IMG/VR virus record: IMGVR_UViG_2778261514_000009
DNA from: a virus
Lineage: Duplodnaviria > Heunggongvirae > Uroviricota > Caudoviricetes
Length of the DNA: 11,484 bases
Reading direction: 5' to 3' (one strand)
Both the position numbers and the translations under genes were made by a program. Each line of letters opens with the position of its first letter. Positions within the stretch are counted from its first letter, which is position 1. Under the pieces are notes generated by a model. That model had not been told where the DNA came from. It was given only the letters and a program-made list of their open reading frames with translations, and made no database searches. Shown piece after piece: positions 9,172 through 10,877 of this stretch.

Positions 9172-9585
9172 ATGGCAACGAATGAAAGCATCATGACGCT
9201 ACCGCTGGCGAGTAAATTTAAAGCCGAAGCGCGGGCAATGGCTGACAGAGGTTTATCAACCTATGAGGCCGTATATCAACTAAACAAACTGGAAGAGCAG
9301 GACAAGCCGCGCGCTGATGCGATTATGGCGCTTCATGAGCATAAAGACTATCAGCCGCTGTTACGTGCAATGGCAAACGTGCCATGTATTAGCGTCGATA
9401 ATGCTCGTGAAATCCTGAACATGACCATAGAGCAGGAGCGCCCAAAGGTTGCACCAGAGCTTACCGCAGCCTTTGAAAACTTTATGGACATGCACAGCCC
9501 GCAAGCCGTATCAGCTGGCATGGCATACGATGGCAGAAACCAGGGCGATGACGGCGACATCGATCGCATACTGAAAACCATCTGA
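9172..9585 (+). CDS. Hypothetical protein (137 aa), last gene of the capsid operon
   Basis: SD AGGGGGAA 4 nt upstream; followed by a terminator; no family recognised. Confidence 0.5.
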   Translation: MATNESIMTLPLASKFKAEARAMADRGLSTYEAVYQLNKLEEQDKPRADAIMALHEHKDYQPLLRAMANVPCISVDNAREILNMTIEQERPKVAPELTAAFENFMDMHSPQAVSAGMAYDGRNQGDDGDIDRILKTI

Positions 9586-9589
9586 GACA

Positions 9590-9614
9590 AGGCCGGAGAA
9601 ATCCGGCTTTTTTT
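9590..9614 (+). terminator. Rho-independent terminator (GCCGGA-gaaa-TCCGGC plus T7) abutting cosQ
   Basis: Read directly; same hairpin family as the terminators at 6955 and 7319. Confidence 0.6.
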
Positions 9615-9790
9615 ACGGGTCCTTTCCGGCATATGGACCCGTTACGGGGCGGCGACCTCGCGGTTTTTCGCTATTTATGAGCCTTTTCAGGGGGGGGGTG
9701 GTGGTTTTGTTGTTTGCTCTATCTTTATGAATGAAAAGGGAAAGATGCAAACAATACACCAACCTGAAGCAGTAATTAAGTTGGTGTATT
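9615..9790 (+). other. Lambda-type cos site (copy A): cosQ-like ACGGGTCCTTTCCGG, cosN with 12-nt cohesive end GGGCGGCGACCT (9647-9658), then a divergent cosB-like region
   Basis: ACGGGTCCTTTCCGG-N11-GTTACGGGGCGGCGACCTCGCGGTTTTTCGCTATTTATGA matches the phage lambda cos junction as recalled, with the same cosQ-cosN spacing; downstream sequence departs from lambda cosB and carries a G9 run and the inverted repeat ATACACCAAC...GTTGGTGTAT. Confidence 0.7.
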
Positions 9791-9791
9791 A

Positions 9792-10334
9792 ATGAAATCG
9801 CACCTGATGAACAAAAAAAACATGGCGAAAAGCTGCCGTGTAAGTGCGACAGCGTTCGACAAGTGGGGAGTGACTCCCGTTGAACGTAAAGGCCGTGAGG
9901 CGTTTTACGATGTTGCCAGCGTGATAGACAATAGGGTTAACAATGCAATTAGCCAGCTTACAAACGACAAAGGCGATATTGATGATGATGAACTCTTACG
10001 AGTCAGGATCAGATTACTGACAGCACAGGCGGAGGCGCAGGAACTTAAAAACGAGCGCGATCGCGGTGACGTGATTGATACTGAGTTTTGCCTGTACGCG
10101 CTTTCAAAGCTGGCGAGTCAGATTTCATCAATCATGGACAGCCTCCCGCTTACTATGCAAAGGAGCTTCCCACAGATTACCCACGCCATGCTGGATAGGC
10201 TTAAAAGGGAAGTGGTTAAAGCCTGTAATGCCAGTGCCAGAGTTGCCGACAACCTCCCACAGATACTGGCTGATTACTTGAAAGAAACAACCGGAAACGT
10301 ACCGGAAAAGTTGCTACAGAAGAAAGGCGAGTAA
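9792..10334 (+). CDS. terS: Terminase small subunit, lambda Nu1 family (180 aa; start possibly at 9807)
   Basis: C-terminal two-thirds aligns with lambda Nu1 as recalled (RLLTAQAEAQELKNERD / LTRAQADAQELKNARD; FCLYALSKLASQISSIMDSLPL / FCTFVLSRIAGEIASILDGLPL; LKREVVKACN / LKRDIIKAMN); N-terminus NKKN... parallels Nu1 MEVNKKQ... HTH region; lies directly downstream of cos as in lambda. Confidence 0.8.
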   Translation: MKSHLMNKKNMAKSCRVSATAFDKWGVTPVERKGREAFYDVASVIDNRVNNAISQLTNDKGDIDDDELLRVRIRLLTAQAEAQELKNERDRGDVIDTEFCLYALSKLASQISSIMDSLPLTMQRSFPQITHAMLDRLKREVVKACNASARVADNLPQILADYLKETTGNVPEKLLQKKGE

Positions 10335-10339
10335 CAGAC

Positions 10340-10556
10340 GCGCAATTATTGAACAAAACTGAGAAACGACATGAAAGCGTCATAAATCGCCATTTTAGAT
10401 GATTACCGTGTCGTTTCTTTTTATTGTGTATCTATTTAAAAACAAATAGTTATGTTCGAGAAGTACCGACATGCTTTTTCCAGAAAAATTTTCATAAACA
10501 GATAAAAACCGCGAGGTCGCCGCCCCGTAACGGGCCATAATTCCAGGAAGGACCCG
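10340..10556 (-). other. Second, inverted cos module (copy B): cosQ-like, cosN (GGGCGGCGACCT on minus strand at 10514-10525) and a lambda-like cosB with I1-like and R-like elements
   Basis: Reverse complement of 10500-10556 reads CGGGTCCTTCCTGGAATTATGGCCCGTTACGGGGCGGCGACCTCGCGGTTTTTATCTGTTTATGAAAATTTTTCTGG, close to copy A and to the lambda left end; further along, CGAACATAACTATTTGTTTTTAAATA resembles the lambda I1 region; inverted CGTTTCT elements at 10363-10372 and 10409-10418. Confidence 0.6.
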
Positions 10557-10589: not shown

Positions 10590-10877
10590 ATGACAGAAGC
10601 CGAACTACTGGGATTAATCCGCCGCGTTACCGGAATCAGCCAGCAGCATGACGAACAGGCCACGCAGCCGGACAGCGTGACCGCCGAAAATTACGCGCGT
10701 GTGGTTGCTGAGGTGATGCGCCGTGATGGTATCCAGCTTAATGATGTGGATATGCGCAACATAGGATCCGCGTTCTTGAAATGCTGGCCTACAATCGCCG
10801 CGTGGCACTGTATCGGGAAACGGAGAAAATTACGTACCACTGGAAGAAGCCGGAGCGGTTACGGCGTTAACGAGTAG
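10590..10877 (+). CDS. Hypothetical protein (95 aa), weakly supported
   Basis: ORF with a G-rich SD-like sequence upstream; no family recognised; could be non-coding. Confidence 0.3.
   Translation: MTEAELLGLIRRVTGISQQHDEQATQPDSVTAENYARVVAEVMRRDGIQLNDVDMRNIGSAFLKCWPTIAAWHCIGKRRKLRTTGRSRSGYGVNE

Follow-up and report, generated by a model that had tools for sequence, protein, structure and literature searches.

A satellite island of Escherichia coli carries a Nu1-family small terminase with an N15-type DNA-binding domain, a candidate private packaging address

That phage-inducible chromosomal islands (PICIs) can encode a small terminase subunit (TerS) of their own is a concept established from SaPIs, whose TerS-S belongs to another TerS family than the protein described here. 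SaPI TerS-S (Ubeda 2007, cited in PMC6739421 and PMC6092414) recognises the site of its own island and uses the large subunit (TerL) of the helper, with no TerL encoded by the island. Its system is Gram-positive and headful (pac) and acts with a separate inhibitor, Ppi. For the Gram-negative cos PICIs, Rpp is the sole mechanism studied. Rpp proteins (RppA, RppB and RppC of EcCICFT073-type PICIs) are 135–153 aa long and have no region for binding TerL; they depend on heterodimers with the helper TerS, in which they contact its DNA-binding domain (DBD) and alpha3 (PMC6739421, PMC9026076). A laboratory counterpart to what follows is the viable lambda-N15 hybrid phage hy4, in which a chimeric TerS, its DBD from N15 and its 3' half from lambda, functions together with lambda TerL on the cosB of N15, while N15 cos is not packaged by the terminases of lambda and 21 (Feiss et al. 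2015, PMC4669245). The presence of terS on some Gram-negative PICIs was already noted by Fillol-Salom et al. in 2018, with EcCIRM12579 among those listed (PMC6092414), and in SatelliteFinder terS counts among the core components of a PICI, with the role of 'redirecting packaging' (PMC10085698). The cf-PICI modules (PMC10085698; bioRxiv 10.1101/2022.09.08.507074) combine TerS with capsid genes, as the present island does, but unlike it they additionally encode TerL, HNH, portal, protease and connectors. The literature searched contained no study of a cos-type, Nu1-family PICI TerS, and neither this island nor EcCIRM12579 figured in any experiment there; what is added here is the mosaic architecture of the protein, a conserved R3-like site, and a view of two cos sites as one cassette.

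The window, meaning the whole stretch of 11,484 nucleotides that was analysed (IMG/VR record IMGVR_UViG_2778261514_000009), holds an island of ~11.3 kb that is whole, lies in tqsA, and is 100% identical to E. coli STEC17-183 (NZ_CP075652.1). Its genes are, in order, a tyrosine integrase, an AlpA-type regulator, a D5-type primase, SSB and PerC (ORF list, Pfam, RefSeq annotation), followed by a lambda gpE-like major capsid protein, a gpD-like decoration protein, a 137-aa ORF and terS. The island thus has the int, alpA and primase/replication module, the size of ~11 kb and the dedicated att site by which Gram-negative PICIs are recognised, and is without tail or lysis genes. It is syntenic with EcCICFT073 and EcCIRM12579, both of which Fillol-Salom et al. 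(2018) enter as PICIs in their Table S1; the table also gives EcCI042 and EcCIK1516 an att site in tqsA (PMC6092414). Judged by this content, the window is a complete EcCICFT073-like PICI of E. coli. Searching the whole window for TerL homologues of the gpA, N15 gp2 and PhiR5_1 A types yielded none, and likewise no Rpp homologue. Apart from TerS, the packaging and head genes on the island are only the E-like, the D-like, and possibly a scaffold-like gene. The absence of an overlapping terL marks the satellite context and is no bar to membership in Phage_Nu1.

Three smaller frames deserve mention. The 137-aa ORF (9172–9585, + strand) between the gpD-like gene and the first cos site, cos1, aligns with the C-terminal end of the PHROG 53 profile, 'head maturation protease' (positions 495–567 of 583, E 1.7e-10), and may encode a Nu3/scaffold-like protein; if it does, the island would hold capsid, decoration and scaffold homologues. 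A 95-aa ORF to the right of the second cos site, cos2 (10590–10877, +), is frameshifted according to RefSeq and matches PHROG 1561 over residues 1–64 only; its counterpart in EcCICFT073 (L006:11374-11655) is intact. A hypothetical ORF of 299 aa (1829–2728, +) has an unusual, low-complexity-like composition, overlaps a 106-aa minus-strand ORF (2380–2700, −) and may be spurious; EcCICFT073 has small minus-strand genes of the YlcI/YnfO family at this position.

The product of terS is annotated by RefSeq as 'terminase small subunit' (WP_024226396.1). An earlier note on this DNA, made from the letters alone, had read the frame as a satellite-encoded small terminase of the Nu1 family that aligns with lambda Nu1 over its whole length, and both statements hold: the ORF is exact, it lies in a complete PICI that has no TerL, it matches Pfam Phage_Nu1 (PF07471) with 84 bits where the cut-off is 30 (E 1.2e-23) and PHROG 57 'terminase small subunit' (E 1.7e-52), and it aligns by BLASTP with lambda Nu1 at 35% identity (query 6–166, lambda 3–180, E 5e-35). 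Aligning a profile of the satellite TerS with lambda Nu1 by hhalign gave a probability of 99.9% (E 1.5e-31, 161 columns). N15 gp1 is likewise homologous over the whole length, at 46% identity. A phmmer search of PDB sequences with the single TerS sequence found neither lambda Nu1 nor Rpp; lambda TerS came up only when the family profile was used (E 0.006). The structure prediction of the N-terminal winged helix-turn-helix (wHTH) that the same note had proposed as a check came out in its favour: the predicted wHTH matches that of lambda TerS, with long helices predicted for codons 72–166 (AF2; the model was built on a 92-sequence alignment, a 24-sequence alignment having given an unusable model with pLDDT 52). 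The gene also sits where phages have it, directly 3' of a cosQ-cosN-cosB array with R-type repeats, with its start codon at bp 146, which is the position right after cos of the N15 and lambda genes. On these comparisons terS is a member of the Nu1 family over its full length.

The nearest relatives of this TerS are found in other satellites. All those that are at least 54% identical and whose context was examined are satellite-borne, in islands of the same kind, where cos1 and terS accompany genes like those for gpE and gpD and TerL is missing (Enterobacter/Citrobacter-type, Kosakonia and Superficieibacter loci), whereas the phage-borne relatives, in which gpA comes next in order, are at most 46% identical (N15, Pseudomonas phages, Shewanella prophages). 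By this distribution, TerS belongs to a lineage specific to satellites. Scanning genome contigs with narrow peptide patterns returned 4 loci.

Table 1. Coordinates of the packaging features around terS, numbered from the first letter of the window; distances in bp are from cosN.
Feature	Position	Strand	Sequence or remark
Terminator-like stem-loop and T-run	9591–9614	+	GGCCGGAGAAATCCGGC then T7; RNAfold −14.2 kcal/mol
cos1, cosQ-like box	9617–9629	+	GGGTCCTTTCCGG; element 9617–9658
cos1, cosN cohesive-end sequence	9647–9658	+	GGGCGGCGACCT; same as lambda
cos1, cosB R3-like site	9694–9716	+	GGGGGTGGTGGTTTTGTTGTTTG; bp 48–70; assigned from position and conservation
cos1, cosB R2-like site	9747–9764	−	GCAAACAATACACCAACC on the + strand; inverted copy of the R3-like motif
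cos1, R1-like copy	9780–9790	+	GTTGGTGTATT; direct copy, abuts the terS start codon
terS	9792–10334	+	Nu1-family small terminase; ATG start, 180 aa, stop included
TerS, wHTH DBD of N15/D3 type	9792–9932	+	codons 1–47; recognition helix and wing TAFDKWGVTPVERKGRE
TerS, helical core and C-terminal region	10005–10289	+	codons 72–166; homologue of the lambda Nu1 regions for self-association and for binding gpA
TerS, 14-aa tail	10290–10331	+	codons 167–180; TGNVPEKLLQKKGE; from alignments
cos2, inverted	10359–10555	−	cosQ-like box 10555–10543, cosN 10525–10514
cos2, phage-type cosB R3	10473–10457	−	bp 53–69
cos2, phage-type cosB R2 (inverted)	10418–10406	−	bp 108–120
cos2, phage-type cosB R1	10373–10359	−	bp 153–167

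Likeness to the known small terminases is distributed unevenly along the protein. The DBD (residues 1–47) is 60% identical to N15 gp1, 38% to lambda Nu1 (with three deletions) and 32% to PhiR5_1 Nu1, and its recognition helix and wing (AFDKWGV-PVER-GRE) are nearly the same in N15 gp1. The linker (48–71) shares 4% with lambda Nu1, the core (72–130) is 51% identical to N15 gp1, 54% to lambda Nu1 and 66% to PhiR5_1 Nu1, and the last 36 alignable residues (131–166) reach 31%, 31% and 47%, respectively. The same split is seen in tblastn searches: residues 1–53 matched 41 records, among them only N15, an N15-like Enterobacter phage, an Alteromonas phage and Pseudomonas phages and not one E. coli lambda-like phage, whereas residues 72–180 matched 152 records with E. 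coli lambda-like phages on top (PhiR5_1 59.6%, PhiR12 50%, lambda 45%). Some 110 E. coli lambda-like phages match the C-terminal two thirds, and none of them has this type of DBD. TerS is a natural hybrid of an N15-type DBD and a lambda-type body, which is the architecture of TerS-hy4, though the latter is a laboratory construct in a complete phage.

This result refines what the earlier note had said about divergence. It had placed the strongest divergence from lambda in the N-terminal DNA-binding region, and with 38% in the DBD and 4% in the linker against 54% in the core, the N-terminal third is indeed the most diverged; the identity to N15 gp1 and the tblastn split nevertheless indicate a different, N15/D3-type DBD and not a lambda domain that has drifted. 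Its second claim, that the C-terminal region is better conserved, is borne out for the core and fails for the extreme C-terminus. It is the extreme C-terminal ~40 residues of Nu1 that are usually assigned to gpA binding. The 14-aa tail is found in all E. coli island alleles examined and has no counterpart in lambda, in N15 or in the Enterobacter-type satellite TerS; together with the lack of an overlapping terL behind the gene, it sets the E. coli island alleles apart from lambda Nu1 and N15 gp1.

Upstream of terS, the terminator-like stem-loop closes the capsid gene block just before cos1 and is identical in EcCICFT073. The likeness of cos1 to phage cos sites is confined to 9610–9692, that is cosQ, cosN and ~45 bp beyond; farther from cosN than this, no match was found in any of 50,697 phage records. 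At the R3 position cos1 has a motif, GGTGGTGGTnTTGTTGTT, that resembles R3 of N15 and is kept, along with the DBD, in every TerS-type satellite examined, including Enterobacter and Kosakonia. R3 lies at bp 50–65 in lambda and at bp 48–59 in N15, where it reads GAGGTTGTTGTT (PMC9026076, PMC4669245). Within the R3-like site TTGTTGTT is invariant, N15 included, and the site, with its GGT/GTT repeats at bp 48–68, is related but not identical to the R3-N15 of hy4: its GTTGTT core lies 8 bp farther from cosN than that of N15, and at the N15 GTTGTT position the island reads GGTGGT (4/6 match). The R2-like site is an inverted repeat of 18 nt, 78% complementary to 9700–9717, of which CAATACACC(A/C)AC is conserved across genera; it lies ~50 bp away, as against ~200 bp in N15 and hy4, and no convincing copy of the remote N15-like rR2 site was found inside terS. 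The R1-like copy (11 nt, 100% complementary to 9753–9763) is less conserved than the other two and has diverged in the loci L016, L018 and L019. The repeats thus run direct, inverted, direct, the order of R3, R2 and R1 in lambda.

Conservation picks out these repeats from their surroundings. Between E. coli-type satellites and those of the Enterobacter/Kosakonia/Superficieibacter type, conservation reaches 83% in the R3-like block and 67% in the R2-like one, as against 30–47% for the segments around them (bp 35–47, 69–100 and 119–145; 44–47% on either side of the R3-like site), and both blocks are retained even where cosN has changed (L018, L021). By its conserved repeats and its lack of phage matches, cos1 appears to have a private, island-specific cosB. 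A hairpin spanning 9753–9790 was considered as an RNA element and set aside, as only its 5' arm and not its 3' arm is conserved in other alleles, a pattern that fits a DNA-binding site better. The Rpp-type cos1 of EcCICFT073 has ACCACCACC at bp 55–63 (L006:10609-10623), the reverse complement of GGTGGTGGT (9697–9705 in the window), which lies at a similar distance from cosN in all TerS-type islands.

On the far side of terS lies cos2, so that two lambda-identical cosN, each with a cosQ-like box, stand inverted around the gene; the inverted arms (9616–9687 and 10485–10556) are 82% complementary. Through its cosB, cos2 is 83% identical to the cos of PhiR5_1 and 75% to that of lambda. Among islands whose terS is the same or close (protein identity 83–97%), the cosB of cos2 is of another type or missing, with very different repeats in RM12579 and L016. 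The Enterobacter-type islands lack cos2 altogether. In the lambda arrangement, the repeat is TGTCG(T/G)T here (10359–10473, −), CAGATCC in RM12579 (L007:10740-10928), ATGTCCGGTT in CFT073 (L006:11130-11300) and ATGGGACA in L016, which also has a different cosN (L016:4640-4860); for EcCICFT073, Fillol-Salom et al. 2018 had reported no phage cosB at all (PMC6092414). The pairing of cos1 with terS, in contrast, is kept in every TerS-type satellite fetched, from E. coli, Enterobacter/Citrobacter-type, Kosakonia and Superficieibacter loci. As cos1 is constant and cos2 variable or absent, cos1 travels with terS and cos2 tracks something else, plausibly the helper, and the differences in its repeats from island to island suggest that it may be matched to different helper TerS types. 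No clean covariation of the C-terminal TerS allele with the cos2 or cosN type emerged, the C-termini of the window and RM12579 being one substitution apart with different cos2 cosB.

The arrangement closely resembles that of the Rpp islands. EcCICFT073 is nearly identical to the window as far as the cosN of cos1 and again outward from the cosN of cos2, and between both cosN it carries rppA (c1503) and cosB sequences of its own (L006:10520-11330) where the window has terS; the corresponding cassette of EcCIRM12579 is ~92–94% identical to that of the window. Rpp and TerS thus share a backbone and a slot (cosQ, cosN, private cosB, gene, inverted second cos), a presumed aim, turning lambda-type packaging toward the island, and a similar wHTH fold. 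They differ in that TerS is a full-length Nu1 homologue whose DBD is N15-type and not lambda-type. TerS has no similarity to RppA (BLASTP E 1.3; hhalign probability 0.06%), and membership in Rpp was rejected on this ground and because TerS has 180 aa with a Nu1-type C-terminal region. The segment between the inverted cosN might accordingly be an exchangeable packaging-specificity cassette, with sister islands solving the same problem through either Rpp or a whole TerS; I regard this as tentative, at somewhat short of an even chance, and the same guarded estimate applies to its further parts, that TerS would make the island independent of the helper TerS and that the helper-matched cosB of cos2 would be swapped among islands. 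Were the cassette reading true, this would be the first cos-type satellite TerS working without a satellite TerL.

terS is under purifying selection. Pairwise dN/dS among E. coli alleles is 0.15–0.27 overall and 0.11–0.24 in the C-terminal 50 codons. Among satellite TerS the DBD evolves slowest and the C-terminus fastest (dN 0.20 vs 0.92, window against Enterobacter type), and residues 131–180 are mosaic between E. coli island alleles, with a dS of 1.2 as against ~0.1 elsewhere (window against L016). At least 3 C-terminal allele types occur in E. coli island TerS, with recombination breakpoints near codon 130. Of 5,426 complete E. coli genomes, 479 (~9%) have at least 80% of the cos1-terS-cos2 cassette, O157:H7 and O55:H7 included; the frame of 180 aa is intact across hundreds of genomes and a form of 167–170 aa across genera, and some O157 copies are interrupted by IS elements.

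Taken together, it seems fairly probable that terS encodes a functional, satellite-borne small terminase of the cos type that gives the island a private packaging address, and the comparisons support the view that TerS may recognise its own cosB and dock the helper TerL. The N15-type wHTH would bind the private cosB of cos1 at the R3-like GGTGGTGGTTTTGTTGTT (bp 48–68), and probably at the inverted R2-like copy, the lambda-type helical core would oligomerise, and the C-terminal region would recruit a gpA-type TerL from a resident or infecting lambda-like helper. This TerL would nick the lambda-identical cosN of cos1 and pump island concatemers into heads made by the helper, where by my own estimate a head of lambda size would be full with about four units of 11.3 kb (45 kb). 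As lambda-type TerS does not use an N15-type cosB, the helper TerS should ignore cos1, and competition for TerL would then bring about interference with the helper as a by-product. cos2, with its helper-type cosB, would be a second entry point, usable by the helper TerS. The functional model for this proposal is SaPI TerS-S, with the differences that the island system is cos-type, that cosN is common to island and helper, and that the distinction lies in cosB alone. The C-terminal region, the candidate gpA-binding part, is alignable to lambda and PhiR5_1 and under purifying selection; given that its last 36 alignable residues are only 31% (lambda) and 47% (PhiR5_1) identical, it may or may not fit a given TerL. 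Two TerS-encoding E. coli islands, from IHE3034 and 18098, showed no transfer after mitomycin C with their resident prophages (PMC6092414), and their TerS type may differ from this one. Since lambda DNA is also packaged by the N15-specific terminase (PMC4669245), the island TerS might not be strictly private.

The main rival to this reading is that TerS acts much as Rpp does, mainly forming mixed oligomers with the helper TerS through the conserved helical core, which would divert the complex from phage cosB to cos1 and would still need the helper TerS for contact with TerL. I consider both parts of this unlikely, though not exclusive of a private address, since the two could hold together: the nil similarity to RppA by BLASTP and hhalign speaks against it, as does the full-length, selected C-terminal region that the short Rpp proteins lack, and Rpp contacts the TerS DBD and alpha3, where the island DBD is of a different type. 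A more doubtful idea, which I would call improbable, is that there is no private address and that cos1 and terS were simply captured from an N15- or Monarch-type phage that is itself the natural helper, TerS then being redundant and only raising the dose. The DBD and the R3-like motif do look like those of N15, and Monarch prophages are reported to have a cosB with three R sites, like that of cos1, along with an R3 and a recognition helix of the N15 type (PMC4669245). Yet none of the 50,697 phage records matches cos1 past ~45 bp from cosN or has a TerS above 46% identity, the likeness of the core and C-terminus is to lambda/PhiR5_1 and not to N15, and the close relatives with examined context are all satellite-borne. 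That terS should be a non-functional relic of a degraded prophage head-gene cluster is very improbable indeed. The frameshift in the adjoining 95-aa ORF and the IS elements that split some O157 copies would suit a relic; the dN/dS of 0.15–0.27, with saturated dS between lineages, the frame kept intact in E. coli and in other genera, and the conservation of the neighbouring DNA motifs along with terS would not.

An observation on the related islands concerns their insertion sites. Relatives of the Enterobacter/Kosakonia type interrupt gene E, for the major capsid protein, in a lambda-like prophage (L025:1-12803; the same insertion is seen at ~9000–9900 in L008 to L014 and at L021:7709-8500). 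There, gpC and gpD are followed by the 5' part of E (a fragment of 91 aa); next come the island, from int to terS with its cargo, the 3' part of E (254 aa), and FI, FII, Z, U, V, G, T, H and further genes. These islands bring E- and D-like genes of their own, and such a satellite may disrupt the capsid gene of its helper.

Islands of this kind carry genes for virulence and defence from one E. coli strain to another, O157:H7 and O55:H7 among them, and the packaging-specificity factor decides which phages can mobilise an island. If the private packaging address proposed here is real, such islands would need only a compatible TerL and no compatible helper TerS, and predictions of helper range would change with it. 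The mosaic of an N15 DBD and a lambda core, together with the conserved R3-like site, offers a system in which one can test how packaging specificity is determined by the domains of TerS, and a modular part for engineered cos-based delivery particles.
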